DNA of 64,000 nt from Desulfobulbaceae bacterium (GTDB lineage Bacteria > Desulfobacterota > Desulfobulbia > Desulfobulbales > SURF-16), in the NCBI GenBank assembly GCA_024637145.1, contig JAGXFQ010000039.1, forward strand, positions 2,860 to 66,859, read 5' to 3'. Below, piece after piece: positions 8,987-24,013 of this stretch. The notes under the pieces were generated by a model. That model did not search any database. It was not told the origin of the DNA and saw nothing but the letters and a program-made list of their open reading frames with translations. Numbering within the stretch: the stretch's first letter is position 1; the number at the start of each line of letters is the position of its first letter. A program made the translations under genes and the position numbers.

Positions 8987-9656
8987 GGGACCCTTCTCTC
9001 TATTTAAAAAAAGCCAAGGCCGCCCTTGACACCTCCTCTTTTTTTTTTTGCATATCTTTTACGTTCTTCTGCAAAGATGCTGCCTACTTCCTGACGCTGT
9101 CGCCTCTCTGCAATGAGATGGCCTGCACTCCCTCCTTACCTTCTGTTCCCTGGCACATGATTGTTCGTTTGGGGCGCCATCGAGGCGCTGGTCCCGCACG
9201 CTATTGACAGGGGCTGCAGGCTGCATTGAGAGAGAGGGCGGGTGCAGCATGACCCCCCACACAGGGGCAATTTAACATCAGGAAACAGTTTGCTATCTTG
9301 ACCTTACAGAACCTGCACCCGCAAGAAACTTTGATAATGGCATGGTCATCTTCGAAAAAAAAGGATATTCTTTCACTGACTTGCCATGATATGGAATGAT
9401 ACCGGCAAGAAGGGAATTTGCAGGGGTGACGCCTGGGGTACAGGAATCACCTCCAGACAATCAAGAAAAAGAAAAGCCAAGGGCATTCTTTTCTTCTTTC
9501 GTATACCTAGTTAATGATAGTCGTGCCCTGCTGTCCGCGACCAACAATGCCCTTGTGCAGGCAGAGGCGTTGATCTGGCAATCACCACCAGGAAAAAAAC
9601 AAGAATTCCTCCTTTTTTCAGCAGCAATCAAGGCCACCTCATATCGTTGCTATATT

Positions 9657-12600
9657 ATGAATCCCTTCGCCATTGCCAAAATCAACAGCCCGTCTCCGCC
9701 TGAGGGCCTGCTTCGCCAGAGATTGTTCCGACTCATCGACTCCCCCCCCCTGCGCCCGATTATGTGGATTTGCGGTCCGGCCGGCTCGGGCAAGACCACC
9801 TTGGCGGCCAGCTACCTGTCGTTTCAGCAGCACCGCAATCTGTGGTATCAGGTCGATGCAGGCGACGCAGATATCGCGACGTTTTTTCACTACCTGGGTC
9901 TGGCGAGCCAAAATGCCGCTCCCCGGCCCCCACAACTGCCGATCTTTTCCCCTGAATATCTCGAAGAGATAACCGTTTTCGCCCGGAGATATTTCATCGA
10001 GCTGTTCGCCGCAGTGGCAGACAACAGGGATGGCGACAGCGCTGCGGACAACCCCTACTTCCTCACTATTGACAACTACCAGGACGTCCCGCCTGAAGCG
10101 CCGTTGCATGAGGCGCTGGCGGCCGGCCTTGATGCGCTGCCCACCGGGATCAGGGTTATCGTCATCAGCAGGGAGGAGCCACCCCGGCAATACACCCGTC
10201 TGCGGGCCAATGGCCGTATCGCCATGATCGGCTGGAGCGACCTCAGGTTTACCCGGGAAGAATCCAGCGCCCTGCTCACCCACCACTACCAGGTAAAACA
10301 CAGTGCCGGTGACCTGGATCTGCTCTATGCCAGGTCTCAGGGCTGGGCAGCCGGACTGGTACTCTTTAACGAAAGCCTGCATATTGACAACACAGCCCTC
10401 AGCTTTCCGGAAGAATCGCCGCCCCATGAGGAGATTTTCGAATATTTCGCCGAAGAAGTCTACCGGCACCTGGCCACTGATATTCGTTCTTTTTTGATAA
10501 AAACAGCCTTTCTGCCGCAGATAACGCCACAATGCGCCGGGATTATCGCAGAAACAGAGCAGGCGGCCGCCATCCTCAGCACCCTGAGCCGCAGAAACTG
10601 CTTTACGGAAAGGCGAATCCTGCCCCAGCTTACCTATCAGTATCACCCGCTTTTTCGAGAATTTCTTCTCACCAAGGCGGCCACGCTCTTTTCCGCCCCG
10701 GCCATTGTGCGCTTGCAGCGCCAGGCAGCCCAGCTCCTGGAGAAGAACGGGCGCATTGAGGATGCGGTAGCGCTGCTCCTGGACGGGGACGACTGGGACG
10801 AACTTGTGCCGATTCTCGCCGCCAATATTCCTCTGCTGCTGGCCCAGGGCAGAGCCAAAACCGTCCAGGAATGGCTGCATAAAATTCCCGAGAAGATCCG
10901 GATACAGAACACCATACTCACCTATTATCTCGGCATCTGCCGGATGCATCTTGATCCGGCGGCCGCCTTGGCACTCCTTGAAACCTCTTTCAGAGAGGCC
11001 TGCCAACAAGGCAATGATGCCCTGGCCCTGACCAGTTGGTCGGATGCGGTGATCACTATCCTGCATGGCTGGAACGATTTCACCATCCTCGATAACTGGA
11101 TTGCCTGGCTGGAAATTAGGGTGGAGAGGGAACCGCCCCTGCCGGCCGGCAAAATCGAAGCCAAGGTGGCAGTCAGCATGGCCGGGGCCCTTATTTTCCG
11201 ACGCCCGGATCAGCCCGCAATGATCAGGCCGTGGCTGAACAGGGCTCTGCAGCTGAGCCGGGAAACGGCTGACGCCAATCTTCAGGCCCAGATTATCTGC
11301 TACGCCCTGCAGTATTACAGTTCTCTAGGCGACACCATCAATACCGAGGTTATCCTCCTGGAACTCAGGAGCATCCCCAGTGCCGCAATCACCTCGCCAA
11401 CGGCCGTTATCACCCTGAAGTGGATTGAAGCCGTGTCCTGCAACTGGCGGCTGGCAAACCCGGAGGCGGGCCTGCGGTTAATCAACGAAGGCCTGGACTT
11501 TGCCAAGGCCAACGGCCTCTCTTCCGGCAACGACGTCCTTTTTGCCGTGGGGGCCTATTGTGCCCTGCTCAAGGGCGATTTAGCCAGGGCCGGAGACTTC
11601 ATCAGGCGTATCGAAAAGACCCTCAACCGCAACAGATTTCACAGTTTCTGCCAGTACAATTACATCACCGCTTTTTATCAACTCTTGCAGGGGGATGTCC
11701 CTGCCGCCCAGCGCCACGCAGAAATCGCCTTACAATATGCCTCTGAAACCGGGATCTTTTTCCCGGTGCTGTTCTGCCGGCTGGCCCTGGCGCACATCAC
11801 GCTGGAGAGCGGTGATTATCAGCAAGCCGGCGAACACCTTGACCTGGTTGCTGAGCCGCTGACAAAGTCGGAAAGCGGCATTTTGACCTATTCCTTTGAA
11901 CTGGCCCGGGCGCGTCTGGCCTTGGCCACCGGCAAAAAAGCCGAGGGGCTCTTTTTTCTCCGTCAGGCCCTGCAACTTGCCCGCAAAAACGGCTACACCT
12001 GGCTCTTTTGGTGGTGGCACCCCGCCAGCATGGCGCGGCTATGCGCTATTGCCCTGGAAGCGGGCATTGAAGTGACCTATACGCAAAAGATCATCCGCAC
12101 CTGCAGGCTCAAACCGGCAGCACGGGCCGTCATCTCAGATACCTGGCCCTATCCTTTACAGATCACAACTCTGGGACGTTTTGGCATCATCCAGGATGGC
12201 CAGCCTTTGCTCTTTTCAGGAAAAGAGCCGCGTAAGCCCCTGGAGATGCTTAAGGCTCTGATCGCCTTTGGCGGCGATAATGTCAGAGAAGAACAGATAA
12301 GTGAGGCCCTCTGGCCGGAAGCAGACGGCGACGCAGCCCACAAATCCTTTGAAGTCTGCCTGGTCCGGCTCCGGAAACTGGTGGGCGGCCAGCAGGCCAT
12401 CCGTTGTCAAGGCGGCCTGGTAAGCATCAAGGCCGGATGGTGCCGGGTTGACGCCCTGGTTCTTGCCGATATTCTCGAGGAGGCTGAAAAATCGTGGCTG
12501 CACGCAGACCACCGACCGGCCGCGGCCTTGCCGGCGGATCATTTCGGTCAGGCCGTGCACAAAGCGGAGGGGGCGGTGAACATATACAATGGTGACTTTC

Positions 12601-12926
12601 TTCCTGCTGAGACCCATCAGGCCTGGGCCATATCGTATCGAGAGCGCTTGCGAAACAGAACCATACAGCTGCTGGCCCGCCTGGCTGCCCACTGGCAGAG
12701 GACCGGCGCCCTGGAAAAAACCCTGGCCTGTTACCAGCGCGGTCTGGAAATCGATGCACTGCGGGAAGAATTTTATCAGCAACTCATGGTCTGCCAGCAG
12801 CAACTGGGGCGGCATGCCGAGGCGGTAATCACCTATCAGCGCTGCCACCAAGCCCTCTCCGCCGACCTTGGTATTCGCCCCTCACCGACAACAGAAGGCA
12901 TCTTCCGCACAATCACTACCTCCTGA
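9657..12926 (+). CDS. Large STAND/MalT-like ATPase regulator with helical-repeat middle and C-terminal winged-helix + BTAD (SARP-type) module
   Basis: Track ORF 9396..12926 trimmed to the ATG at 9657 (MNPFAIAKINSPSPPEGLLRQRL.., MalT-like N-terminus). It has Walker A ICGPAGSGKTTLA, Walker B-like FLTIDNYQDV, and a long TPR-like helical region. The C-terminus ITTLGRFGIIQDGQPL..EEQISEALWPE..VRLRKL plus REEFYQQLMVCQQQLGRHAEAVITYQRC is typical of SARP wHTH+BTAD. Confidence 0.75.
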   Translation: MNPFAIAKINSPSPPEGLLRQRLFRLIDSPPLRPIMWICGPAGSGKTTLAASYLSFQQHRNLWYQVDAGDADIATFFHYLGLASQNAAPRPPQLPIFSPEYLEEITVFARRYFIELFAAVADNRDGDSAADNPYFLTIDNYQDVPPEAPLHEALAAGLDALPTGIRVIVISREEPPRQYTRLRANGRIAMIGWSDLRFTREESSALLTHHYQVKHSAGDLDLLYARSQGWAAGLVLFNESLHIDNTALSFPEESPPHEEIFEYFAEEVYRHLATDIRSFLIKTAFLPQITPQCAGIIAETEQAAAILSTLSRRNCFTERRILPQLTYQYHPLFREFLLTKAATLFSAPAIVRLQRQAAQLLEKNGRIEDAVALLLDGDDWDELVPILAANIPLLLAQGRAKTVQEWLHKIPEKIRIQNTILTYYLGICRMHLDPAAALALLETSFREACQQGNDALALTSWSDAVITILHGWNDFTILDNWIAWLEIRVEREPPLPAGKIEAKVAVSMAGALIFRRPDQPAMIRPWLNRALQLSRETADANLQAQIICYALQYYSSLGDTINTEVILLELRSIPSAAITSPTAVITLKWIEAVSCNWRLANPEAGLRLINEGLDFAKANGLSSGNDVLFAVGAYCALLKGDLARAGDFIRRIEKTLNRNRFHSFCQYNYITAFYQLLQGDVPAAQRHAEIALQYASETGIFFPVLFCRLALAHITLESGDYQQAGEHLDLVAEPLTKSESGILTYSFELARARLALATGKKAEGLFFLRQALQLARKNGYTWLFWWWHPASMARLCAIALEAGIEVTYTQKIIRTCRLKPAARAVISDTWPYPLQITTLGRFGIIQDGQPLLFSGKEPRKPLEMLKALIAFGGDNVREEQISEALWPEADGDAAHKSFEVCLVRLRKLVGGQQAIRCQGGLVSIKAGWCRVDALVLADILEEAEKSWLHADHRPAAALPADHFGQAVHKAEGAVNIYNGDFLPAETHQAWAISYRERLRNRTIQLLARLAAHWQRTGALEKTLACYQRGLEIDALREEFYQQLMVCQQQLGRHAEAVITYQRCHQALSADLGIRPSPTTEGIFRTITTS

Positions 12927-13095
12927 TCCGTGCTGTTTCCCCTTTTTTATTTTTTCCCAGACACCATCTGTAGGTAATCTGTAAGTAGCTGCGTGCTAAT
13001 CTTTCCTCTGTTTTTTGGCCGCTGGCCCCATTGCCAAAGCTCCCCGGTGCCGGATCCTGCCGGCTCTTACTATTCCAGAACAGGAGTGACAGACA

Positions 13096-13629
13096 ATGCC
13101 CCCTATATTGCATAAGAAACTGATAGTGGTCGGCATAATGCTTCTCTTAACCACAATTGCCGGCCGGCAAACAGGTGCTGCTACACCTGTGGCGCCGATG
13201 CTTGAGATGACGGCAGATGGCCGCAAGTTCATCAAATCCCAAGGGAAAACTTCCGCGGATATTGCCAGGACGATTCCCGCCAAAGAAAGTATCGGGCTGC
13301 CCATCTATCCCGGCGCTTATTTCGCCTCCCATCTCGACAATGTGGGCAGCAACGGCACCCTACTGGCGGCGCTCAATTTAGTTGCCGAGGACTCGCCGGC
13401 GCAGATAGAGGCATGGTATCGTAAAAATCTCAGCGACTGGTCCTACAGTGACACCTTCGCCCTTTTCTACAAAGGCCAGGGGGAAATCAACATGGGCAGC
13501 CTGATGGAAATACCGACCATTACCATTACGGACGAAGCTGATCCCGCTTTGCAGGGTTTTGATTTGATGTTTTATGAATCCCAGAAGATCAAGTCCCGCA
13601 TCATCATACGCTATGTGCCAGGGAAATAA
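13096..13629 (+). CDS. Exported/anchored hypothetical protein (first gene of CsgG-centred locus)
   Basis: AGGAG lies upstream. There is an N-terminal hydrophobic segment (LIVVGIMLLLTTIAG). The C-terminal approx 110 aa (LPIYPGAYF...IEAWYRKNL) share a pattern with both halves of the 16462-17328 lipoprotein. Confidence 0.65.
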   Translation: MPPILHKKLIVVGIMLLLTTIAGRQTGAATPVAPMLEMTADGRKFIKSQGKTSADIARTIPAKESIGLPIYPGAYFASHLDNVGSNGTLLAALNLVAEDSPAQIEAWYRKNLSDWSYSDTFALFYKGQGEINMGSLMEIPTITITDEADPALQGFDLMFYESQKIKSRIIIRYVPGK

Positions 13630-13702
13630 CCTGCAATGGCTGGCTTGTCGCGGTGCGGCACCGGCTATATCTACAGACCAATGAGCAAAAAAGAGGGGGA
13701 AA

Positions 13703-14422
13703 ATGAAAACCATATCTTGTAAAATAATGATCCTTTTATGGCTTGTTTTGCCGGCTGCTGCCTACGGCTGGGGAGAATCAGCACCTGAGATGGACAACTC
13801 CGCCACCACCCAGAAGCTGCAGAGCCTGCCCCGTCCACAGGGGCCCCGCAAGGCCGTCACCATTTACCAGTTCCGCAGTGCGGTGCAGGAAGTGAGTGCT
13901 GCCATGGCCACGGATATGTTTGCCACCGCCTTGATCAAATCAGGGTCGTTCCGGGTCATGGAGCGCCAGCGCTTACACGAAGGGGTGATGCAGGAACGGC
14001 AGCTCAATGCCCAAGGCCTGACCTCCGGCGATTCCGCCAATCAGCAACTGAAGGCCGCGGATTACATCTTTGAAGGGGCGGTTACCGAGGCCAATAGCCA
14101 GGAAAAGAGTACCGGTATCGGCGCCACCTTCAAGGGCCTGGGACTCGGCAGCAAAAGCAAAAAGGCCCAGATCGGCCTTGACTTACGGGTGATCAGCGCC
14201 GCCACAGGCGAAGTGCTCGATTCCGTAAATGTCCGCAAAAAAGTCGATCAGAGCGGTATTTCCGTGGCCGGCATCGGTCGTTTCGCGCAATCCTTCACCA
14301 AGGAAAACCTGCATGGCGCCGATCTGGACGTTGATCATGCCCGCAAGGAAGGGGTGGATAAGGCCTTACGGGCCTGTATTGAGGAAGCCGTCTACCAACT
14401 GGTAACCCGTTATGGCGACTGA
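13703..14422 (+). CDS. CsgG-family outer-membrane secretion-channel protein (no lipobox)
   Basis: It aligns by eye along its whole length with E. coli CsgG. LPRPQGPRKAVTIYQF matches LPAPTGKIFVSVYNI, ATDMFATALIKSGSFRVMERQRL matches ATAMLVTALKDSRWFIPLERQGL, and AADYIFEGAVTE..IGLDLRVISAATGEVLDSVNV matches AANIMVEGSIIG..IAVNLRVVNVSTGEILSSVNT. The signal peptide ends ..PAAAYG/WG with no L-x-x-C. Confidence 0.85.
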   Translation: MKTISCKIMILLWLVLPAAAYGWGESAPEMDNSATTQKLQSLPRPQGPRKAVTIYQFRSAVQEVSAAMATDMFATALIKSGSFRVMERQRLHEGVMQERQLNAQGLTSGDSANQQLKAADYIFEGAVTEANSQEKSTGIGATFKGLGLGSKSKKAQIGLDLRVISAATGEVLDSVNVRKKVDQSGISVAGIGRFAQSFTKENLHGADLDVDHARKEGVDKALRACIEEAVYQLVTRYGD

Positions 14423-15695
14423 AAAACGCATGTGGCTGCCCCTGCTGGCGGCACTGGTCTTGGTGATCTGGGTCGGCCTGGTCCAGGCGGAATCACGGCG
14501 GCCGCAGGGGACAGCCAGCAAAAGGGCCATTGAGCTTGCCGTCAATGCCACCCCCCTGATGGCCCGCTTCCCCTTTGATGTGACCTCGCCGCTGGATCGG
14601 GGCTTTCATTTCAGCAACGGCCGCCATCTGCTCTATGCCGTCCCGGTGCAGCCTGGTCAATTCTATTCCCTGGCCCTGACCTTTCCGGTCTTGAGCCAGG
14701 AAGTGGCAGTGACGCTCTATGACCGCTGGCCCTGGGCACCAGGAGCCCGCCAAGCCCGCCTGCCCTTTCCGGTCCTGGGCAGTAACCAGGGCCCCCTTGA
14801 ATGCTTCTGGGATTTCGGCATTTCTCCTCACTCCTCCGGCTCCATTATTTATATCGCCCTGGAAGCCTCCTCCCCCCTTGATCGCGGCGCAACCTATCTC
14901 CCCCATACGGTTTTTATCAGCTCGTCTGCCGGGCGCACCAGAGGCCACGGACAGCAGGGCGTTCATGTCATGGAGGGACCCAGAAGCTTCCAGGTGGTGG
15001 CCAGTCAATATGGTGGTGGCTCGCCCATGGCGGTGGCTGCCATGGAAAGTTCACCGGCCAGCCCGGCGACCCACGCCATCCCCCCGGAACTCCTGAATCG
15101 GCCGCTTCCCGGGGATCTGCTCCGCAACAGCCGCTTCCAGCAGGGACTCCTGCATTGGGAGCCGTCCCAGGACCCTGACAACAAAGCGCCGGTGCTGGCG
15201 GCCGTCACGGACGAGGGCCTGCGCCTCTGGAGTCAGGAAGGCCGGGGCCGGATCAGGATGACGCAGCAGATCGGCGCGGATGTTCGGGATGCAAAGGCCC
15301 TCTTCCTGCGTGCCCAGGTAAAAATCAGCCAACAGACATCAGTCGGACTCGGCAGCGGCCGCGAGGCGCCGGTGGCCATTGCCGTGTGCTACCAGGATAC
15401 CGAGGGTGCTTCCCATTGCGGGCAGGACGCTTTCTGGCAGGGTTTTTTCATCCTGGATCCGCCGGATGGCAAGCCGCCGCTCCATGGCCGGCAAGTGTCC
15501 CCGGGGCTCTGGTATCAATATATCACGGATCTCACCACCCTCGACCCCCCTCCCGCCATGATCAAGTCGATAACCCTGGAAGGCGCCGGCTGGCCCGAAT
15601 GGACGGGCTGGGTGCAGGAAGTGCATCTGCTCAAGCGCAGCAGTACCACGGCAGAGGCAGCCGAAGGCGGGGAAGCCTTTGGTCGGTCTCAGTGA
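14412..15695 (+). CDS. Exported hypothetical protein with C-terminal jelly-roll/CBM-like region
   Basis: The start overlaps the CsgG-like stop by 11 nt. The signal peptide is MWLPLLAALVLVIWVGLVQA. The C-terminal approx 170 aa begin NSRFQQGLLHWEP, a pattern common at the start of CBM4_9/galactose-binding-like domains. Confidence 0.6.
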   Translation: MATEKRMWLPLLAALVLVIWVGLVQAESRRPQGTASKRAIELAVNATPLMARFPFDVTSPLDRGFHFSNGRHLLYAVPVQPGQFYSLALTFPVLSQEVAVTLYDRWPWAPGARQARLPFPVLGSNQGPLECFWDFGISPHSSGSIIYIALEASSPLDRGATYLPHTVFISSSAGRTRGHGQQGVHVMEGPRSFQVVASQYGGGSPMAVAAMESSPASPATHAIPPELLNRPLPGDLLRNSRFQQGLLHWEPSQDPDNKAPVLAAVTDEGLRLWSQEGRGRIRMTQQIGADVRDAKALFLRAQVKISQQTSVGLGSGREAPVAIAVCYQDTEGASHCGQDAFWQGFFILDPPDGKPPLHGRQVSPGLWYQYITDLTTLDPPPAMIKSITLEGAGWPEWTGWVQEVHLLKRSSTTAEAAEGGEAFGRSQ

Positions 15696-15726
15696 TGCGA
15701 CAATAATTCAGAAAAAGGAGAAAAGG

Positions 15727-16425
15727 ATGGACAACACTCAAGCTCAGGATCCGCAGGGGATAGGAGAGCAGATTAAGGCCACTCCGGCCACAGCCCTTGA
15801 GGTGATCACCAACCCAACCGGATTTTTCCGGCAGATGCCGAAAACCGGCGGCTTTCTGCCGCCACTAATCTTTATGATTGTGATGGGCGCCATCGGGGGC
15901 CTGCTGCAGGCCATTCTGGGTCTTTTTGGCCTGGGCAGCGCCGATGTGATAAGCGGCCTGATCGCCTTGATCCTGATGCCCATCATGGTTGCCATCTTCA
16001 GTTTCGTGGGCGCTGCCATTCTTTTTGTGTTCTGGAAGATTCTCGGCTCAACGGAATCGTATGAGACCGCGTTTCGGTGCGGGGCCTATACCGCGGCCAT
16101 CATGCCCATTACCATCCTTTTGAATATCATTCCTTACCTGGGCGGCATCCTGGGGCTGGCCTGGATGACCTTTCTGCTGGTGCAGGCGAGCATCGAAGTG
16201 CATGGCCTGGCGGCCAAGAAGGCCTGGATCGCCTTTGGCATCCTCTTTGCCCTTCTGGCAATCAGTTCCATCACCACGGAGATCGCTACCCGCAAAATTT
16301 CCAGAAGCATGGCAGAGTGGCAGCAGACCAACCAGGCCCAAATTGATGAGATGAGTCCCGAGGAGGCCGGCAAGGCCATGGGGAAATTCCTGAAGGCCTT
16401 TGAAGAGGCGGCTGAAAAGGAATAA
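15727..16425 (+). CDS. Yip1-like polytopic membrane protein
   Basis: Trimmed to the ATG at 15727, which has AAAAAGGAGAAAAGG upstream. There is a short soluble N-terminus (..NPTGFFRQMPKTGG), then about 5 TM helices. The architecture and motif resemble bacterial Yip1-domain proteins. Confidence 0.55.
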   Translation: MDNTQAQDPQGIGEQIKATPATALEVITNPTGFFRQMPKTGGFLPPLIFMIVMGAIGGLLQAILGLFGLGSADVISGLIALILMPIMVAIFSFVGAAILFVFWKILGSTESYETAFRCGAYTAAIMPITILLNIIPYLGGILGLAWMTFLLVQASIEVHGLAAKKAWIAFGILFALLAISSITTEIATRKISRSMAEWQQTNQAQIDEMSPEEAGKAMGKFLKAFEEAAEKE

Positions 16426-16461
16426 TTTTCTACAAAGCTTAGATTACAAAAGGTGCTGCCA

Positions 16462-17328
16462 ATGACAAAAATTTTCATTTCTCTTATGACATTCATCATG
16501 CTCGCCTTACCCGGCTGCAGCTCTGATCCGGCAGAAAAGCAAACCAGGGAGAGTGACAACGGACCTGCCGAATCGGCCCGACAAAAGGCTGTAGCCGACG
16601 CCCATGGCGGGCAAGAGGGCCTCTCTGTGCCTCAGGGCTATCCGGAAGAACTTGTACCGATCATGCCTGGCAAGATTGTGGGCGGTGCTTCAGGCCCGCA
16701 GGAAGTATGGGTCCAGTTTCTGGTGAATAAGGAGCTTGAGGCGGTAGCTGCTTATTACAAAGATGTTCTGAGCAAGGGGAAGTTGACAAACGCCCTGAAA
16801 ATGGGTGATGACCTCTATATGATCGACGGGGAAATCGAGGGGAAAAGCATTGACATCAAGGTTTCACCGCCGCAGCAGGATGACAGTTTCAAAACGCATG
16901 TTATGATTACCATCAAGGGAGATTTTGGACCTCTGCAGCAAAAGAGCGGCGCTGCCGGAGCTGATCAAACCATGGCGAACAAGGATATCCAGGATCTGGC
17001 AAAGCTCCCGGCTGATTATCCCCTGGACCTGGTCCCCCTCTATGGCGGCAGCAAAATTACCCATGCCGAAAAAACGACGTACAACGGCAAGATGATTTTC
17101 TTGGTGAAAACAATATCCACTGCTAATAAAGATGCGGTTCATGCCTTTTATAAAGAAGTGTTGCGGGAGGCAAAGGATAAAGAAGAAGCGGTTTTGTTTG
17201 GCGGCAAGATGTATACGCTTGCCGGCGTGCTTGGAAAATATAAAACCAGCTTGCTTTTTGGCAATTATGATATTGAAGGCAGCAGTTTCAAGTCTCTCTG
17301 TACCATCCAGCTTGATATTTTAGAATGA
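16462..17328 (+). CDS. Lipoprotein with two tandem copies of an approx 110-aa domain
   Basis: Lipobox LALPGC after MTKIFISLMTFIM. The two halves (PQGYPEELVPIMPG...AVAAYYKDVL and PADYPLDLVPLYGG...AVHAFYKEVL) are clearly related to each other and to the 13096-13629 product. Confidence 0.65.
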   Translation: MTKIFISLMTFIMLALPGCSSDPAEKQTRESDNGPAESARQKAVADAHGGQEGLSVPQGYPEELVPIMPGKIVGGASGPQEVWVQFLVNKELEAVAAYYKDVLSKGKLTNALKMGDDLYMIDGEIEGKSIDIKVSPPQQDDSFKTHVMITIKGDFGPLQQKSGAAGADQTMANKDIQDLAKLPADYPLDLVPLYGGSKITHAEKTTYNGKMIFLVKTISTANKDAVHAFYKEVLREAKDKEEAVLFGGKMYTLAGVLGKYKTSLLFGNYDIEGSSFKSLCTIQLDILE

Positions 17329-17330
17329 TT

Positions 17331-17356
17331 GCCGGGACGGGATCCCGGCCTTTTTT
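17331..17356 (+). terminator. Rho-independent terminator inside the exported-protein locus
   Basis: GCCGGGA(17331-37)-CGGGA-TCCCGGC(17343-49), followed by C + TTTTTT (17351-56). It starts 3 nt after the stop codon at 17326-28. Confidence 0.6.
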
Positions 17357-17368
17357 GTCCCACCGACT

Positions 17369-17384
17369 TGGCGGTGCCATTGCT
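17369..17384 (+). promoter_or_regulatory. Sigma-54-type -24/-12 promoter candidate
   Basis: TGGCGGTGCCATTGCT has GG at 17370-71 and GC at 17382-83 with 10 nt between them (TGGC-N7-TTGCT). It lies 50 nt upstream of the ATG at 17434. Confidence 0.45.
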
Positions 17385-17433
17385 TGAGATCTTCAGCGCC
17401 TGGCCGCCAGAAACGCAAGGCAGGAGAAAAAAA

Positions 17434-18150
17434 ATGGCTGTCAAAATACAGCTTTTGAGAGGAATTATTGCCACTGCCCTCCTTATGGGCATGGCTTTTC
17501 CGGCTCTGGCCGGATGGGTGCAGACGGAAAGAGATGGCACCAAAACCCTTATCAGCGACGGCAAGGTCAAAGAGCTGCCGGCAGAGCCGGATGAGGGATG
17601 GTTGGTGATGGACCACCGTGGCCGGAAGGTGTTGGTATTCAACCCGGAACAAAACACCTGCTCTGAGGCTACTTTTAGCCAATATTGTGAGACAATAGAG
17701 ATCTTAACCGCTGCCCATCAAAAGGCCCTGGCTGCTTTTGAAGGTGATGAAGAAGGGCACAGTCCTCCTGCTGTGGAAATAAAGAAGCGGGGTTCAGGAG
17801 GAAAAATAGCCGGCTTTGAAACCACCAAATACCAGGTTTATGCTGATGGCGAGCTCTATGAAGAGCTCTGGCTGACCACAGACAAAGCAGTGCTGAGCGA
17901 AGTCGGCGATCAATCCTCGCTTCAGGATCTGTTCCGATGTCTGCATGAATCCGAGGTGGAGGGCAATCCAGCCTATTTTAAAATGATGATTTCAGGCTGG
18001 CCGCTGAAAACCCTTTCACAAGAAGCGGGCCTAATGGAGGTCTATACTGATGTCGTGACTCTGATCAAGACAGAGATTCCGCCAGCGGATCTGGCCCTGC
18101 CCCCCAGCTGCCGCTCCGTGCCGTTGCAAGAAAGCATGGAGAATATGTAA
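17434..18150 (+). CDS. Exported protein, DUF4412/LolA-like (paralogue of next gene)
   Basis: Trimmed to the ATG at 17434. The signal peptide is MAVKIQLLRGIIATALLMGMAFPALA. It shares ..G.ETTKYQV......ELW.T.D.. and a C-terminal ..I.....P.... pattern with the 18229-18933 product. Confidence 0.55.
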   Translation: MAVKIQLLRGIIATALLMGMAFPALAGWVQTERDGTKTLISDGKVKELPAEPDEGWLVMDHRGRKVLVFNPEQNTCSEATFSQYCETIEILTAAHQKALAAFEGDEEGHSPPAVEIKKRGSGGKIAGFETTKYQVYADGELYEELWLTTDKAVLSEVGDQSSLQDLFRCLHESEVEGNPAYFKMMISGWPLKTLSQEAGLMEVYTDVVTLIKTEIPPADLALPPSCRSVPLQESMENM

Positions 18151-18228
18151 TATAATCAATGTGATCAACAGGCAAAACCCGGCACAGGCCAGGTTCTGCC
18201 GGAGCAAGAAAACAGGGAGAAAGAGAGA

Positions 18229-18933
18229 ATGGTAAAGAATGTAAGGCGAATGATGTCCGCTCTGATTATCACCGGCCTCGCCATGGCGGCGCTTGCCACT
18301 GCCGGCGAAGAAATGCCGGAAGCGAAGGTCTCCTATGCAGCGGATTCCATCATGGAATCCGCTGAGATGAAGATGAGCGGCAAGGTCTATGTAGCGCCCG
18401 GCATGGAACGGCGAGAGCACATGAGCGGCGGAGAGAAAACTATCATCATTGTCCGCCGCGATAAAGGGGTGATCTGGAATGTGATGCCCTCGGAAGGGAT
18501 ATATATGGAAAACGCCCTGGAGGGTGGCTCCGGGACAGCTGATGCCCCCTTTACCATTCGGGAGAAAGAGGTGGTGGGCGAAGAGGTGATTAATGGCCTG
18601 CAGACGACCAAGTATAAAGTGATCCTCGATCAGGGCAACAGCGTCTTTGGCGGCTTCATCTGGGTAACTGCTGACGGCATCACCATGAAAATGGATGCCA
18701 TTGCCAAGGAGCAGGGGGAAAAAGTACGTATTCGCCAGGAATTGCGCAATGTCAAGATCGGCAAGCAGGACCCCTCCCTTTTTGTGGTCCCGGCCGGCTA
18801 TCATAAAATGGCCATGGGTATGCCCGACATGGGCGGCATGATGGATGACATGGGCAGCAATTTTGAAGAAGAAGAGGAGGCCGGCGGTTTAGGCGGCATG
18901 ATGAAAGGCATGAAAGGCCTCCTGGGGAGATAG
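18229..18933 (+). CDS. Exported protein, DUF4412/LolA-like, with Met/Gly-rich acidic C-terminal tail
   Basis: Signal peptide ..ITGLAMAALATA. The core INGLQTTKYKVILDQ..GGFIWVTADGI..LFVVPAGYHKM resembles DUF4412 proteins. The last 41 aa contain 10 Met (MAMGMPDMGGMMDDMGSNFEEEEEAGGLGGMMKGMKGLLGR). Confidence 0.55.
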   Translation: MVKNVRRMMSALIITGLAMAALATAGEEMPEAKVSYAADSIMESAEMKMSGKVYVAPGMERREHMSGGEKTIIIVRRDKGVIWNVMPSEGIYMENALEGGSGTADAPFTIREKEVVGEEVINGLQTTKYKVILDQGNSVFGGFIWVTADGITMKMDAIAKEQGEKVRIRQELRNVKIGKQDPSLFVVPAGYHKMAMGMPDMGGMMDDMGSNFEEEEEAGGLGGMMKGMKGLLGR

Positions 18934-18937
18934 GAAA

Positions 18938-20890
18938 ATGGCCGTGGGCAAATTGGGTTATCTTGGCCTCCTCTCTGCTCTGCTGCTGGCGAGCTGCTGG
19001 TTGACACCGGCGGCCTGTGCCCAGGAAACGCCTTCCTGGCTGAAGACGCTGCAAAAGCAGATGGAGACCATGCAGGGCCAGCCGCCGCTAGGGAGGCCTG
19101 AGGAGCCGCGGGCAGGGACGGCAGCCTCTGAAAAGGCAGAGGGCAGTGTCCTTCTGCAGATCAAAGAGACGCCCCAGGTGCGCCTGGAACGGGCCTGGCT
19201 CGAGTCATCTTCAGGGAAAGCGAGCTTTGATTTTCTCCGTGAAGGAGGGGCATGGCGCCGCCAGGTACCGGCAGGTCCCTATCGCCTCTACCTGGAGGTG
19301 ATGGGGCCCACCGTCGCCTTTATTGTTGATCAGGGCCCGCTCACTGTCCATGGCGGCCAAACCGCCCGCTCGGCAATCAATCTGCAGCAGGTAAGTTCAA
19401 CAGTGCGGATTGAATATCCCCCCGGTGCTTTACCGCCAGGGGCCACGCTCCATTTCTATATGGATCGGTTCAGCAAAAACTCCTTTGCCGAGCAGGAGTT
19501 GCCGGCAGACGGCCTGGTGGTGGGTTTGCCGGTGGGGCCACTCTGGCTGGCGATCCGCGCTGCGGCCGGTGCCATTCTTTTTGAAGATGCGGTCACCATT
19601 CACGCCGGGCAACAGAGCGTTTGCCGGATTGAACGCTTCCGGGATGTGTCACGGCCCCTGCCGTTGCGCCTGTGGGTGCGTTCAGAAGCAAACCCCACAC
19701 CCTCGTTTTCCGCTGTCTTAAAAGACGCCGCCGGTACCCAGCATCAGCTCAAGCCGGCCTCGCCGGGGCTGTGGCAGGCAGCCGTGTTGCCGGGCAACTA
19801 CCAGCTCATCATCAAGGGCCGGGGCATCAAGCAGACAGAGAATCTGACCATGGGTGATAACGACTTGCCCCTCAATCTCCTGCTGGTGCTTAAAGAGCGG
19901 AGCCATCTCTGCAAGGAGAGTGAGACCTTTCGGGCACGGGATTATTTCGTCAGGGCCGAGAAGGCGGAAAAAGCGGGCCGGGCCCCGGATGCCATCCTCT
20001 TTTACCATGCGGCAGACCACTGCTCAATGACCAACGATGCCCAGCAAGCGGTGGAGCGGCTCGGCACCATGCTGGCGGTCCAGGCCGAGAAAAAGGGCAA
20101 GGACTACAGCGGTCCCCCTCTCTATGAGCGGCGGGCCGATGACCCGTTATGTAAAACCGATCCCCTGGCTTTCTGTACCACCCGTGGGGAGCGCATTGTC
20201 TTCAAAGAGGAGCTGGGCGCCATTGACTGGTATCTGCTGAGCGGCAATCATGGGGCCGCGGCACAGACCATGATACGCGTTGCCGACGAGCTGCCGCTTG
20301 AGGCCCATGACCAGTTCAAGAATTTTCTGGAGTATTTCGCGGCCAGACGCAACCGACAAGCCTTTGCCGCCATGGCCGAGATAGCCGCCCGCCAAGGCCG
20401 ACGCGCCCTGGAAAAGGAAGAAGAGGTCTTCAGCCCCGGTCTGCAGGGGCAAAGCCGGGAGAGCAGAAACGCCGTCATAAATCGCTCCGTCCAGTTGCTC
20501 GAAGCGGCCAACCGCTGGCTGACCTATGCCCAGAACCGGCAGATGAAAGAGATCAGCCGGCGCGCTGAAAGCCGCGGCACTGCCCTGCTCGAAAAAAGAG
20601 AGCTGCGGCCGGCTGATCTTGAGCATGCCCAAACCTATTACACGTTGGCGGCCGTGCCGGACGGCATCATCCGAATTCGGCAGGTCGCGGCGCAGCAGGG
20701 GGAAAGGGCTGCCCGGGAGGGCTCCTTTCGGCAGGCCGCTGACTTTTTCCGCCTGGCCGGCAACTTTGCCGAAGCAGAGAAAATGACCGCCAAAGCCGAG
20801 TCACAGAACGATGTTGAGCAAAAATCAGCAGAGCAACAGCGGAGTTTCAGCCGCGACTCCGAGGCCCTGGCAGACGAACTGGGGATTTGA
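18938..20890 (+). CDS. Large exported (possibly lipo-) protein: beta-rich N-half, helical C-half
   Basis: 650-aa ORF starting 4 nt after the previous stop. The N-terminus LLSALLLASCWLTPAACAQE offers a lipobox-like LASC or SPI cleavage at ACA/QE. I recognise no family. Confidence 0.6.
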   Translation: MAVGKLGYLGLLSALLLASCWLTPAACAQETPSWLKTLQKQMETMQGQPPLGRPEEPRAGTAASEKAEGSVLLQIKETPQVRLERAWLESSSGKASFDFLREGGAWRRQVPAGPYRLYLEVMGPTVAFIVDQGPLTVHGGQTARSAINLQQVSSTVRIEYPPGALPPGATLHFYMDRFSKNSFAEQELPADGLVVGLPVGPLWLAIRAAAGAILFEDAVTIHAGQQSVCRIERFRDVSRPLPLRLWVRSEANPTPSFSAVLKDAAGTQHQLKPASPGLWQAAVLPGNYQLIIKGRGIKQTENLTMGDNDLPLNLLLVLKERSHLCKESETFRARDYFVRAEKAEKAGRAPDAILFYHAADHCSMTNDAQQAVERLGTMLAVQAEKKGKDYSGPPLYERRADDPLCKTDPLAFCTTRGERIVFKEELGAIDWYLLSGNHGAAAQTMIRVADELPLEAHDQFKNFLEYFAARRNRQAFAAMAEIAARQGRRALEKEEEVFSPGLQGQSRESRNAVINRSVQLLEAANRWLTYAQNRQMKEISRRAESRGTALLEKRELRPADLEHAQTYYTLAAVPDGIIRIRQVAAQQGERAAREGSFRQAADFFRLAGNFAEAEKMTAKAESQNDVEQKSAEQQRSFSRDSEALADELGI

Positions 20891-20911
20891 GTGGAAGAGA
20901 GAGTGGAGGAC

Positions 20912-21661
20912 ATGAACAACAGAGAACAGCGCGATTTCAGCGGAATTAGCAAGGGCCGGACCCGTTTCCTGCCCAAGGGGGCTGTGCTGGCAGGGCTGGC
21001 ACTCTTTCTGCTGATGGGTCTGGGAGGCGAGGCGGCGGTGGCGTGGTCTGATGGCCAATATGCCTTACCTCTGCCCAGTTACCGCGGCGAGTCAGGGAGC
21101 TGCCGGCCGTCCCCGGAGCAAAAGATGGTGAGAATGAACGATCCCTGCCAGGACGTCTGTTCCTCGGAGGCAGGGGTTGATGAATACGGCGACGCGGTGC
21201 GCGACAGGATCCGCCGCAAGCACGACCGCAAGTTTCAGATGCATGAAAAATATCAACTCAACTGCGAGGATTACTGGTGGGCATCCTCCCATATCGAATG
21301 CCGGGCCGCCGATTCCTTCTTTGACGATGTCAATAGAATCGTGGAGAACTACAAGGACTTCTGCCGCGATATAATGGAGGGCGATTGCCGCGACTTCATG
21401 GAGTGTCAACAGAACGCCAATCCCGCCTCTGCCCAGGGGTTGGCAGCGGCGCTGGGTGGCGGGCCGCAAAGCTTCTGCACGGAAATGGAAGATATTGTCA
21501 GAAGTTTCTGCCACCAGGCGGATGACGAGGGCAGCCTGCAAGGCGCTTATAATCGCCTGATCGGCGAAAATCCCTGCTTTGCTAAAATAATGCCGGAATT
21601 CAGCACCATGAAAAAGATCTGCATTCTGCCTTCAGTGGACCCGATTTTCGGAGCCCTCTAG
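20912..21661 (+). CDS. Cys-rich (12 Cys) exported/anchored hypothetical protein
   Basis: ATG at 20912 has GGAGG 5 nt upstream (the track used GTG 20891). The N-terminus is ..SKGRTRFLPKGAVLAGLALFLLMGLGGEAAVA. There are 12 cysteines in the mature approx 200 aa. Confidence 0.55.
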   Translation: MNNREQRDFSGISKGRTRFLPKGAVLAGLALFLLMGLGGEAAVAWSDGQYALPLPSYRGESGSCRPSPEQKMVRMNDPCQDVCSSEAGVDEYGDAVRDRIRRKHDRKFQMHEKYQLNCEDYWWASSHIECRAADSFFDDVNRIVENYKDFCRDIMEGDCRDFMECQQNANPASAQGLAAALGGGPQSFCTEMEDIVRSFCHQADDEGSLQGAYNRLIGENPCFAKIMPEFSTMKKICILPSVDPIFGAL

Positions 21662-23302
21662 GTGAAGACCGGCAGAACCGGGGAGCAGTTGCTTGGCATT
21701 CTCTGGGCTGGAGCCGTCACCTTGCCTTTTCTCCCCCAGGCCTACCGGGCCTTCGCACCGCTGCAGGATCTCATGCTGGTGGCCGGTGGTAGCCTTGTCT
21801 GCCTGCTTACCGCCTGCCGCACTTCCTCCGGCGGTGCTAAGGGAGCGCCAGGTTGGCCCCTGTGGGGGGCTGCTGCCGCTGTTTTTCTGATGATCGTTGC
21901 CCCCTGGCCGGGGGCCGCCTCACCTGCCCGCCACCTGAGCGAGGCCATTCGCCTTGGTGCCCTCTGCGGCATTGCCCTGACCCTGCCCTTGCTTATCGGT
22001 GCCGAAAGCCGCCGCTTCCTGCTGCGGGCCTGGCTTGTCATCGGCTGGCTGCAGGCGGCACTGGTCTTTCTGCAGCTGGGCGGCCTCGATCCTTTTGCAG
22101 CCTTTGTCGGCCCGGCCCTGGTCTGGCGGGTGTACGGCACCCTGGGAAACCCAAACCTGGTTGCTGTCCTGCTCCTGCCCCTGGCCGTCCTCTCCCTTGA
22201 CCATACTCTCCTGGCCAAGCGCCGCCACCGCCTGTTGTCGGTAGTGATTCTCAGCCTGGCACTCTGTGCCACCGGCAGCCGCCTGGCAACCCTGCTCCTG
22301 GTGCTGGGCCTGGGCCTGGCAATGGGCCACCTGCACCTTGCGGCAGCCACCACAAAGGCAAGGGGAAGGCCGATGCTCTGGGCCGGGCTCCTGCTGCTTC
22401 TGGGCGCTGCCATGTCTGCGGCCTTTCTCATGGGGAAAAATTTCAATTCGCCCTGGGGTCGCCTTTTTTTCTGGCGGGCCGCTCTGCTGCTCTTTTACAG
22501 GCAACCCCTCCAGGGCCACGGACTTGGTCACTTCCAGGGCGCCTATCCGCAGGCGGCCGGAGAAATAGCGGCGCCAGGCGCGGCGCCCTTGGCCCTGCCG
22601 GTGCATGCCCATAACGACTGGCTTGAATATGCGGTTGAGGGGGGGGCCGCCTCTTTTTTACTTGTGGCCAGTATCGTCGCCGCCCTGTGGGCCGGCTGGC
22701 AGACCCCTGACAAGCGCCCCCTGGTCCTGGCCCTGGGCCTGATGTTTTTGGCGGCCTGCTGGTATTCCCCCCTGCATACCGCGCCCACCGCCCTTCTCTT
22801 CTGGACCCTCTTTGGTCTTGTCGCTGCCGTCCAGGGCGAAGGCACGAAAAGGAGAATCCCCCGGCTTCTGCCGGCCGGGCTGTGCCTCATCATGCTCTTG
22901 GGGGTGGGGCCAATGGCCAAGGGGGTTTACGGCCACCTCCTGGCCGGCCGGGCAGAGGCCGCCTACGCCCAAGGGGCCATTAAGGAGGGGGTGGGTCTAT
23001 GGGCACGTGCCGTGCAGCTGGCTCCCGGCGAAGGGGCCTTTGTCTATGGGTGGGCCTGGGGCCTGGCCAGGACAGGAGAGGAGGGCAAGGCCCTGGGGCT
23101 GGCCCAGGACGCCGCCCACATCCACGCCAATTTTGATCTCTACCTGCTGCAGATAACCCTGCTGGCCCGCCAGAGGCGGCTAGCAGAAGCCAGAGCGCAC
23201 CTGACCTGGTTGACCACGGTGTTCCCCGATCTGCAGGAGGCGCAGCTCCTGTTGCCTGCGCTGGAAGTGCGCCCCCAGCACCTGTCAGGCGGGGTTTTGT
23301 GA
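21662..23302 (+). CDS. O-antigen-ligase/Wzy_C-family polytopic membrane protein with C-terminal TPR-like repeats
   Basis: GTG start directly after the previous stop. About 10-12 TM helices. The periplasmic-loop motif PVHAHNDWLEYAVEGG is typical of the Wzy_C/O-antigen ligase family. The C-terminal approx 130 aa are helical TPR-like (AEAAYAQGAIKEGVGLWARAVQLAP..). Confidence 0.7.
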   Translation: MKTGRTGEQLLGILWAGAVTLPFLPQAYRAFAPLQDLMLVAGGSLVCLLTACRTSSGGAKGAPGWPLWGAAAAVFLMIVAPWPGAASPARHLSEAIRLGALCGIALTLPLLIGAESRRFLLRAWLVIGWLQAALVFLQLGGLDPFAAFVGPALVWRVYGTLGNPNLVAVLLLPLAVLSLDHTLLAKRRHRLLSVVILSLALCATGSRLATLLLVLGLGLAMGHLHLAAATTKARGRPMLWAGLLLLLGAAMSAAFLMGKNFNSPWGRLFFWRAALLLFYRQPLQGHGLGHFQGAYPQAAGEIAAPGAAPLALPVHAHNDWLEYAVEGGAASFLLVASIVAALWAGWQTPDKRPLVLALGLMFLAACWYSPLHTAPTALLFWTLFGLVAAVQGEGTKRRIPRLLPAGLCLIMLLGVGPMAKGVYGHLLAGRAEAAYAQGAIKEGVGLWARAVQLAPGEGAFVYGWAWGLARTGEEGKALGLAQDAAHIHANFDLYLLQITLLARQRRLAEARAHLTWLTTVFPDLQEAQLLLPALEVRPQHLSGGVL

Positions 23303-23372
23303 GATGATGCGGCAACTGCGGGGGCAAGCGCTCCTTGGGGAGAAGGGCGGACTCTTGCCAGCGTTTCTTTTT

Positions 23373-23864
23373 TTAATTTGCCGTTGTTATTACCTGCCCC
23401 CTGGAGGTAAAGGAAATGCCCTGCTGCCCCCCGGCACCAATCATTACGGACTCAACAAGGGGTGGATTAACCGCTTTTTCAGAGTGCCATTCAACTAGGA
23501 AATTGGCCCCTGACCCCCCAGATTTGTCTTTTTGTGGAATAATAAACCGTGTCGTTTCAAAGGGCTTAAGAACCACTTTTTTGTCTACATATTTTTTCAG
23601 GAATGCCCCTTTTGTTTCATGATAGTCTACAGAGCTAATGGTAATTGCATGTTTTGAGTCTATATTTCTGATACTCAGAGTCACAGTCAGCAATATGGGC
23701 TGTTCACGATTGCCCGCGTAAATATGGGAATAGACCGGCACATAGAGGGTTTGTCCCTGGGACAGGGGTATTTCCGCCGCCGCCTGGGCAGAGGATGAAA
23801 AGCTGTTTACTATTGCCAAAATGGCTAACAGTATAAAGCTGAGTTGAGCAGCTAGCCTGCTCAA
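23373..23864 (-). CDS. DUF3124-like exported protein
   Basis: The core GQTLYVPVYSHIYAG....LTVTLSIRN........I.SVDYH...G...K......LKP..T..F.I......GGSGANFLV.W matches what I recall of DUF3124. I place the start at in-frame TTG 23864 (M-SRLAAQLSFILLAILAIVNSFSSSAQA signal peptide), because codons 1-39 of the track ORF are encoded by the repeat element. Confidence 0.6.
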   Translation of the reverse strand: MSRLAAQLSFILLAILAIVNSFSSSAQAAAEIPLSQGQTLYVPVYSHIYAGNREQPILLTVTLSIRNIDSKHAITISSVDYHETKGAFLKKYVDKKVVLKPFETTRFIIPQKDKSGGSGANFLVEWHSEKAVNPPLVESVMIGAGGQQGISFTSRGQVITTAN

Positions 23865-23960
23865 ACGAAACTTATGCCCTTGTGGTATAAAGCTGAGTTG
23901 AGCAGCTTGTCTGCTTTTATGCCCTTTAGGGTGCAAACGAAACTTATGCCCTGTGGGTAT
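23832..23960. repeat. Tandem copies (54 bp + 72 bp + start of a third) of a dispersed repeat element
   Basis: TATAAAGCTGAGTTGAGCAGCT starts at 23832 and 23886, and TATAAAG starts again at 23958. CAAACGAAACTTATGCCCT recurs at the end of each unit. Unit 2 carries an extra TGTCTGCTTTTATGCCCTTTAGGGTG block. Confidence 0.9.
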
Positions 23961-24013
23961 AAAGATAGATACCTTTCTCATAACACGTCCTCTTTAGCCG
24001 TAGATATTGACAC

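Follow-up and report, generated by a model that had tools for sequence, protein, structure and literature searches.

Locus and gene content

The stretch of DNA analysed here, referred to as the window, comprises 64,000 nucleotides from a Desulfobulbaceae bacterium (GenBank assembly GCA_024637145.1, contig JAGXFQ010000039.1, positions 2,860 to 66,859). Ten open reading frames (ORFs), all on the + strand and named g1 to g10, are present where an initial annotation of this DNA had placed them, between positions 13096 and 23302. They follow a large regulator gene, and the second of them, g2, codes for a short relative of the curli channel protein CsgG. As described below, the steady companion of this CsgG clade is the product of g3, which the initial annotation had not singled out, and the island formed by the regulator and the ten genes combines three parts: the CsgG core, the pair of DUF4412 and g8, and the genes g9 and g10, which are restricted to one clade.

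From g1 to g10, the ORFs are spaced by +73, −11, +31, +36, +105, +78, +4, +21 and 0 nt. A Shine-Dalgarno-like motif is found at nine of the ten, the exception being g3, which overlaps the stop codon of the CsgG-like gene by 11 nt. Product lengths are identical in independent gene calls on near-identical public contigs. All nine genes shared with the related locus L002, where the orthologues are 83–98% identical at the amino acid level, have ratios of non-synonymous to synonymous substitution (dN/dS) of 0.11–0.69. Given the ribosome-binding sites, the matching independent calls and these ratios, the ten ORFs are genuine coding genes.

All products begin with a hydrophobic segment or contain multiple transmembrane segments, in line with the claim that all ten are exported or membrane proteins. 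The three families named at the outset were confirmed with Pfam: CsgG in g2 (E-value 2.1e-33), Yip1 in g4 (2.3e-14) and Wzy_C in g10 (1.6e-9), as was DUF4412 in g7 (1e-7). The other six products (g1, g3, g5, g6, g8 and g9) match no Pfam or NCBIfam model, even at lenient thresholds. Lipoboxes are present in g5 (LPGC) and g8 (LASC).

The CsgG-like protein and its coupled partner

The g2 protein (13703..14422, + strand) is a short member of the CsgG/HfaB family. It scores 115.8 bits on the Pfam CsgG model (PF03783; cut-off 20.8) over profile positions 32–200 of 210, and its residues 27–136 also match LpoB (37.3 bits, 3.2e-9). Among PDB sequences, E. coli CsgG is matched with an E-value of 1.5e-13, the alignment running from mature residue 59 to 221. 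Both transmembrane-hairpin segments of E. coli CsgG are full-length in g2 and are kept in 12 members of its clade; from the alignment, they are the putative membrane-spanning part of the protein. A deletion of 15 amino acids takes away most of the constriction loop, including the Y51 position, and at the N55-F56 position only a Q/E-F pair is left, so that g2 does not have the curli combination Y51/N55/F56 (the E. coli CsgG sequence used for this loop comparison was checked in part against the PDB alignment). At the other end, g2 is truncated, lacks the C-terminal helix and is about 40 amino acids shorter than E. coli CsgG.

The signal peptide of g2 ends in ...AAAYG/WGES and contains no lipobox Cys, with 'GWG' in its place. 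The clade, made up of proteins of around 240 amino acids (318 homologues at E ≤ 1e-10), shows the same tendency: a lipobox is found in 19 of 116 members, and 'GWG' or 'WG' replaces the Cys in about five of six. Such a recurrent or clade-wide replacement of Cys by Trp would imply targeting to the outer membrane without lipidation. The position of the replacement is exact (window 13703-13790; P0004-P0123), as can be seen from pairs such as LLAGWGSG and LLAGCASG.

Curli-type partners had been reported missing, and this is the case. No match to CsgA, CsgB, CsgE or CsgF is found in the island, the smallest product of which has 177 amino acids, and CsgE and CsgF have no match in the ten flanking proteins scanned either. 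Glutamine and asparagine together make up 4.6–9.2% of the island products, so none is a Q/N-rich subunit, and the profiles of the DUF799/DUF4810-type context, also described as missing, have no match. However, what had been presented as an unusual situation is an ordinary one, since non-curli homologues form the majority of the CsgG family: only 171 of 601 Pfam CsgG hits were located in curli loci (Dueholm et al., 2012).

The g3 gene (14412..15695, + strand) encodes an exported protein of 427 amino acids. In the AlphaFold2 (AF2) model, an N-terminal beta domain is followed by a Pro-rich linker and a C-terminal jelly roll resembling carbohydrate-binding modules (CBMs). The C-terminal domain has predicted local distance difference test (pLDDT) values of 65–94, and Foldseek relates it to CBM16, 61, 4, 22 and 11 with TM-scores of 0.6–0.66; by sequence, g3 has no match in the PDB. 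Of 11 distinct loci, 8 have this gene directly 3' of the CsgG-like one, with identities of 27–92%, and the 11-nt overlap between the two is found in the window, L002, L005 and L007. This conserved translational coupling is the reason for regarding g2 and g3 as partners. The nearest named relative of g3 comes from a Desulfurivibrionaceae metagenome-assembled genome (MAG). Relatives that consist of the N-terminal domain only are partners of about 200 amino acids in the still more distant operons of L015 and L016, where a Q/P-rich protein is also encoded. A scan of a genome collection with the g3 alignment gave only three loci, the search pattern being narrow. The CBM-like domain is also found attached to a different N-terminal domain (L014 9671-10564; P0132), in which a pre-peptidase-C-terminal-like 'EREPNDTP...' motif can be recognised by eye; no CsgG-like ORF of at least 80 amino acids is present in the whole 14.5-kb L014 locus.

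Relatives of g2 at 57–62% identity belong to a three-gene operon, in which the CsgG-like gene is followed by a g3-like gene (27–42%) and a third gene. In the third gene product, a signal peptide and a PASTA domain (2.5e-8) are combined with a long low-complexity tail that is rich in Q, Y, G, P, S and T and contains a conserved QQ(F)Q(M/V)QQYYYP motif. The operon is present in Geopsychrobacter electrodiphilus (GCA_000384395.1), in MAGs labelled Thermodesulfobacteriota and Bacteriovoracaceae, and in L017; third genes are located at L005 12024-12614, L010 11947-12636, L017 11960-12745 and L013 2417-3184. The PASTA/tail protein could be the cargo of the putative pore, or a tether passing through it. 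Part of the island belongs to this widespread gene set: the window has the genes for g2 and g3 in the same order and with the same overlap, but here a Yip1 gene takes the place of the PASTA/tail gene, and the regulator, the g1/g5-type proteins and g6 to g10 are added.

The Q/Y/G/P-rich tail of these third proteins and the membership of g2 in the CsgG family are what can be said for a cryptic curli-like or Fap-like amyloid with a subunit unrecognisable by sequence. However, Pfam and NCBIfam find no Curlin repeat, CsgE, CsgF or Fap match in the island, none of the island proteins is Q/N-rich or repetitive, the whole 64-kb window is devoid of genes for PASTA or Q/Y-tail proteins, and the loop that constricts the channel around curli subunits is mostly deleted. 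In view of the absent subunit, CsgE and CsgF and of the loop deletion, a curli or Fap system was rejected; the idea is largely refuted, and we give its cryptic form hardly any credence.

Another possibility is that g2 is a periplasmic oligomeric scaffold like LpoB or the N-terminal domain of TolB, with glycan-binding partners acting on peptidoglycan or envelope architecture. The g2 protein shares its alpha/beta core fold family with LpoB, the activator of PBP1b, and the Pfam LpoB match, the missing lipobox Cys in g2 and most of its clade, the loss of most of the constriction loop, the PASTA domain in the minimal operons and the CBM-like C-terminal domain of g3 would all suit such a role. Nevertheless, the CsgG match is far above that to LpoB (115.8 versus 37.3 bits), g2 scores only 21 bits on the LpoB model TIGR02722 (cut-off 110.55) and, unlike LpoB, the entire clade has both CsgG-type hairpin segments at full length. 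The absence of a lipobox in g2 is itself a difference from LpoB, while the retention of one in 19 of the 116 clade members also speaks against the scaffold, which we consider unlikely.

The regulator and its candidate operator

Upstream of g1, at 9657..12926 (+ strand), a protein of the STAND (signal transduction ATPases with numerous domains) class is encoded, an activator with MalT-like tetratricopeptide repeat (TPR), winged-helix and BTAD domains, as judged from Pfam and the L002 orthologue. The Pfam matches are BTAD (4e-20, 73.1 bits versus a cut-off of 22.1), TPR_MalT (7.5e-9), AAA_22 (1.7e-4) and, below its cut-off, Trans_reg_C (0.019, 15.5 bits). The start had been put at 9396, where the ORF opens; the likely start is Met88 at 9657, 87 codons downstream. 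The L002 regulator, a gene call of 1089 amino acids, is 92% identical and aligned from residue 88, and nucleotide homology begins at 9614. Relatives are found beside the CsgG module in L007 (33% identical), where an insertion sequence (IS) element sits between regulator and operon, and in L100 (36%). Altogether, four divergent versions of the locus have the regulator next to the operon. A role of the STAND nucleoside triphosphatase (NTPase) in anti-phage defence was considered and dropped, PADLOC giving nothing beyond a P-loop match.

Between the regulator gene and g1 lies a candidate operator (12966..12987, + strand), consisting of the direct repeats ATCTGTAGGTA and ATCTGTAAGTA with a period of 11 bp. 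The repeats are located about 108 nt 5' of g1, and TGCTAATCT, resembling a −10 box, follows about 9 bp downstream of them. The same layout of repeats and −10-like box precedes the first structural gene in L100 (2647-2665), L007 (6199-6217) and L002/L003. In the 64-kb window the motif is found a single time, even when two mismatches are allowed (0.02 expected), and a scan of the window for it gave no copy upstream of g6. Classical sites of Streptomyces antibiotic regulatory proteins (SARPs) are tandem direct repeats spaced by one helical turn (11 bp) and abutting the −10 region. Because the layout seen here fits such sites and persists at 33–36% regulator identity, control of the locus by the adjacent regulator, as first proposed from its position, is supported, and the conserved repeats would be its binding site. 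With its BTAD, winged-helix, NTPase and TPR domains the regulator resembles SARP/AfsR-type proteins, but its DNA-binding/BTAD part is C-terminal, whereas that of AfsR is N-terminal, and its putative target is an envelope operon instead of an antibiotic cluster.

Other genes of the core

The first structural gene, g1 (13096..13629, + strand), encodes an exported protein of 177 amino acids with a 'PxYPGA...AWY' domain. Its homologues are always part of a CsgG module, being present in L002 (87% identical), in L007 (two copies, 55% and 35%) and in L100 (profile E-value 3e-12). The g4 gene (15727..16425, + strand) encodes a Yip1-family inner-membrane protein with five transmembrane segments (PF04893, 54.1 bits versus a cut-off of 28.6) and is kept after the CsgG module in L002, L007, L012 and L100. 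The product of g5 (16462..17328, + strand) is a predicted lipoprotein of 288 amino acids in which one domain is present twice, a profile of the C-terminal half matching the N-terminal half; its homologue in L007 has a single domain, 177 amino acids and the lipobox LVGC.

Two families of internal paralogues had been suggested, of which the duplication within g5 stands (profile E-value 1e-5, and 4e-7 in L002). The link between g1 and g5 is weak (BLASTP E-value 0.002, profile E-values of 2e-4 to 1e-3), and a relation between g6 and g7 could not be established (BLASTP E-value 0.005, profile E-value 0.019, hhalign probability 1.4%). Between g5 and g6, at 17331..17358 (+ strand), a hairpin resembling an intrinsic terminator is located, with the sequence GCCGGGA-CGGGA-TCCCGGC followed by CTTTTTTGTC. 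In L002 it is degraded (9156-9288), and its role is uncertain because of this lack of conservation.

Extent of the block and its inheritance

The regulator and the ten structural genes together form a block of 13.8 kb (9614..23414, + strand), delimited by its match to L002. This is the sole part of the window matching L002, with nucleotide identities of 94% (7.7 kb) and 90% (5.3 kb); when the 10-kb flanks of L002 were compared with the whole window, nothing matched. The GC content of the block is 0.56–0.61, compared with 0.50–0.55 in the flanks, and the sign of the GC skew changes. A profile scan showed that the flanks of the block in the window encode unrelated functions: an RtcB ligase, a cation/H+ antiporter, a DUF3124 protein and a ferric-reductase-like protein. 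In L002, a transposase gene of the IS200/IS605 type adjoins the regulator. Since the homology stops at its ends, its GC content is higher and its flanks are functionally unrelated, the block is a discrete unit, probably acquired horizontally.

An imperfect 25-nt direct repeat (76%) is found near the ends of the island, at 9524-9548 and 23417-23441, the right copy beginning 3 nt past the end of the L002 homology. It was considered as an att site, for which 76% identity was judged too weak. Downstream, the convergent gene at 23373-23981 (− strand) encodes the DUF3124 protein (1.5e-51); tandem imperfect nucleotide repeats are present at 23831-23964, in the part encoding its N-terminal region.

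Conservation of the core in more distant relatives

As a conserved system of ten genes the locus does not hold up, full synteny being limited to the very close relatives L002–L004. In L007 the CsgG-like protein is 85% identical over the stretch spanned by its shorter gene call, and the gene order is regulator (33%), g1-like, CsgG, g3, Yip1, a second g1-like gene, DUF4412 and the single-domain g5-like lipoprotein. Unrelated genes follow further on, including one for a VWA protein of 2028 amino acids, and g8, g9 and g10 are absent. In L100, where the CsgG-like protein is 75% identical, regulator, CsgG, Yip1 and the g1-like gene are kept without g3; it is this set alone that recurs in the more distant relatives. 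In L012, a Desulfurivibrionaceae MAG, CsgG, g3 and Yip1 are found. After the core, L100 (5223-8715) encodes a radical-SAM enzyme, a peptide of 76 amino acids containing a GG motif, a protein of 194 amino acids and an ABC transporter with a C39 peptidase domain, a set typical of bacteriocins or ribosomally synthesised and post-translationally modified peptides (RiPPs).

This arrangement raises the possibility that the core of regulator, CsgG, Yip1 and g1 serves whichever cargo cluster is next to it, in stress, toxin or peptide export or immunity, with the Yip1 protein acting like YknW, which is part of the YknWXYZ exporter of B. subtilis. The RiPP-type genes directly after the core in L100 and a weak match of g4 to the NCBIfam model YknW_fam (1.9e-5) point in this direction. 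However, the adjacency is seen in one locus only and may be due to chance, the YknW_fam score is far below the cut-off (24 versus 110 bits), the island in the window has no genes for RiPPs, ABC transporters or membrane fusion proteins, and PADLOC found no match, all of which makes such a role very improbable.

The downstream genes g6 to g10

The g6 gene (17434..18150, + strand) encodes an exported protein of 238 amino acids with four Cys residues. In L002, nothing but the last codons of this gene is left; it has therefore been deleted there, rather than inserted in the window. It was rejected as a DUF4412 paralogue: it does not match DUF4412, hhalign of g6 with the g7 family gives 1.4%, and the likeness is limited to about 50 residues.

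The next gene, g7 (18229..18933, + strand), encodes an exported protein of the DUF4412 family (PF14371, 32.4 bits versus a cut-off of 21.6) with a Gly/Met-rich tail ending in GLLGR. The family has no match among PDB sequences, and 387 related metagenome loci were found. In many DUF4412 proteins (window 18800-18933; L020-L099), a linker that is acidic or of low complexity leads to a short basic motif at the C-terminus, KGLFGR, GLLGR or (D/M)LLK. The tail of g7 was considered as a peptide docking onto CsgG and discarded, as the same motif occurs in DUF4412 proteins without CsgG nearby.

The g8 gene (18938..20890, + strand) encodes a predicted lipoprotein of 650 amino acids. In agreement with its description as beta-rich and then helical, the AF2 model (pLDDT 88.9) contains three immunoglobulin (Ig)-like beta-sandwich domains (residues 68–325), followed by a TPR-like helical solenoid (residues 327–647). 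Foldseek retrieves TPR proteins and the stalk domains of adhesins or pilins, nothing specific. Of the 48 representatives obtained in an exhaustive search, most comprise the helical domain alone. Members of this helical family (P0134-P0180) have a signal peptide, a Cys a few residues later and a nearly invariant C-terminus, ...F(K)KEQDxLEKELG[LFM]. The g8 protein itself (window 20830-20890) ends in ...SEALADELGI, so that ...ELG[ILFM] is conserved; this C-terminus may be a sorting or interaction signal. A g8-type gene follows the DUF4412 gene in L018 (46%) and L019 (26%), and a protein corresponding to the helical half is encoded after it in seven of the closest metagenome loci. Instead of a candidate substrate of CsgG, as first suggested, g8 looks like a lipoprotein scaffold that travels with the DUF4412 protein. 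The pair is present in at least nine other loci (L018-L021, L023, L025, L028, L030 and L031) that have no CsgG, g3, Yip1, g9 or Wzy_C within up to 20 kb; in the 80 DUF4412 loci examined, no CsgG, g3, g1, g5, Yip1, g9 or Wzy_C was found.

The product of g9 (20912..21661, + strand), an exported or N-terminally anchored protein of 249 amino acids, contains 12 Cys residues, as had been counted, and all 12 positions are identical in L002. The gene (dN/dS 0.13) is found only in the clade of L002 and L004. Kinship with a Cys-containing protein of 284 amino acids at the analogous place in L007 was considered and rejected, the two having no similarity. The last gene, g10 (21662..23302, + strand), encodes a polytopic membrane protein with nine hydrophobic segments and a helical C-terminal domain; residues 193–335 of the protein match Wzy_C (PF04932, 38.2 bits versus a cut-off of 31.7). 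The TPRs ascribed to it score far below threshold (TPR_2 E-value 1.1, TPR_14 4.5), and it has no match among PDB sequences. The Wzy_C family spans O-antigen ligases, polymerases and PglL-type O-oligosaccharyltransferases.

As the core and the DUF4412/g8 pair recur separately, the island is a composite, completed by the clade-restricted genes g9 and g10. This leads to the question whether it is a single ten-gene machine, or two or three unrelated envelope operons (g1–g5, g7–g8 and g9–g10) lying side by side. For the latter, the g7–g8 pair is found in the nine loci without other island genes within up to 20 kb, the core is succeeded by the giant VWA protein in L007 and by the RiPP cluster in L100, a canonical terminator-like hairpin follows g5, and no operator copy precedes g6. 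On the other hand, the whole block, with identical ends, is common to two otherwise non-syntenic contigs, in L007, too, a DUF4412 gene comes after the core, the genes are tightly spaced (0–105 nt) and all on one strand, the hairpin is not conserved in L002 and no alternative promoter was identified. On balance we consider unrelated operons rather unlikely, though more probable than the other alternatives.

Possible function and comparison with known systems

None of the unrecognised members of the locus was placed in a characterised system by the profile and fold searches, which agrees with its initial description as a dedicated envelope locus, distinct from curli, Fap and known systems for extracellular polysaccharide or lipopolysaccharide. 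Our preferred reading, to which we assign a probability of roughly 40%, is that, when induced, it exports and anchors a surface structure made of protein or glycan, with a logic like that of the Hfa system. It is based on the co-occurrence of the glycan-binding-type domain of g3, the Wzy_C protein, the Cys-rich protein and the Ig/TPR-like lipoprotein. Upon a signal, the STAND-BTAD activator would bind the two 11-bp-spaced repeats beside the −10-like box and switch on the operon. The g2 protein would then oligomerise into an outer-membrane beta-barrel and possibly form a pore, and g3, as its stoichiometric partner, may dock onto it via its clade-specific N-terminal domain, presenting the jelly roll of carbohydrate-binding type. 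Accessory roles may fall to the Yip1-type protein of the inner membrane and to the periplasmic proteins and lipoprotein of the g1/g5 type. The add-on module g6–g10 would contribute the DUF4412 protein with the Ig/TPR-like lipoprotein, the 12-Cys secreted protein and the Wzy_C enzyme, which may transfer or polymerise an undecaprenyl-linked glycan at the periplasmic face.

Several points weigh against export and anchoring by one machine. The genes downstream of the core are quite different in L007 and L100, for which reason the two halves of the island may be functionally independent; the DUF4412/g8 pair does without CsgG elsewhere, and a strong terminator-like hairpin stands between g5 and g6. 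The profile scans turned up neither a glycosyltransferase nor a flippase nor a polysaccharide exporter, whether inside the island or beside it, and so no source of a glycan donor for Wzy_C. The model of g3 as a whole is poor (pLDDT 59.7), its N-terminal domain being poorly modelled, and g3 is missing from L100 and so not obligatory. Finally, pore formation by g2, which has no lipid anchor and a shortened constriction loop, is a prediction from sequence.

Compared with curli CsgG of E. coli (PDB entries 4UV3 and 4Q79), g2 belongs to the same Pfam family and both hairpin segments can be aligned, but the lipobox Cys, the C-terminal helix and most of the constriction loop are lacking, and its partner is g3. 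In Caulobacter, Hfa proteins tether polysaccharide to the cell, and the CsgG-like lipoprotein HfaB is needed by several unrelated secreted anchor proteins, among them HfaE with 10 Cys residues (preprint 10.1101/2022.07.20.500906). The likeness to HfaB, HfaA, HfaD and HfaE is one of logic only: the island combines a CsgG relative with a glycan-binding-type domain, the 12-Cys g9 protein and a Wzy-family enzyme. In contrast to the lipoprotein HfaB, g2 has no lipobox Cys, and it scores 31.5 bits on the NCBIfam HfaB model, the cut-off of which is 300. No homologues of HfaA, HfaD or HfaE and no hfs synthesis genes were found, and the ten proteins match no other NCBIfam holdfast model.

Nothing specific to this set of genes came out of literature searches on CsgG-like operons, PASTA, DUF4412 and cable bacteria. 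As far as that literature shows, the definition of the short clade by its truncated loop and mostly absent lipobox, its steady partner and the regulated composite island are new. In a broader and more speculative form, the CsgG relatives of around 240 amino acids, with an obligatory, coupled partner of two beta-sandwiches (g3), might constitute an unrecognised system for translocation or anchoring at the outer membrane. It would be widespread in Thermodesulfobacteriota and neighbouring groups, with insertion independent of Lol and a non-amyloid cargo. In the island it would have been co-opted, with the STAND-BTAD protein as its switch, for the display of a layer of glycan-modified lipoprotein and Cys-rich protein. 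Taken as a whole, we regard this proposal as improbable.

Proteins of the CsgG family greatly outnumber curli systems, yet to our knowledge roles have been assigned only to curli CsgG and Caulobacter HfaB. Pores whose constriction loop is truncated may also be of interest for nanopore engineering. Geopsychrobacter electrodiphilus, which we take to be a cultured organism, carries the operon in its minimal, three-gene form, and this would make the question accessible to experiment. Our analysis delineates a large CsgG clade with clear structural departures from the curli protein, identifies its steady partner and shows the core joined to other modules of the envelope and to a regulator of its own. 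Should the core prove to be a channel, both the range of cargo handled by CsgG-type proteins and the routes by which these reach the outer membrane would be wider.

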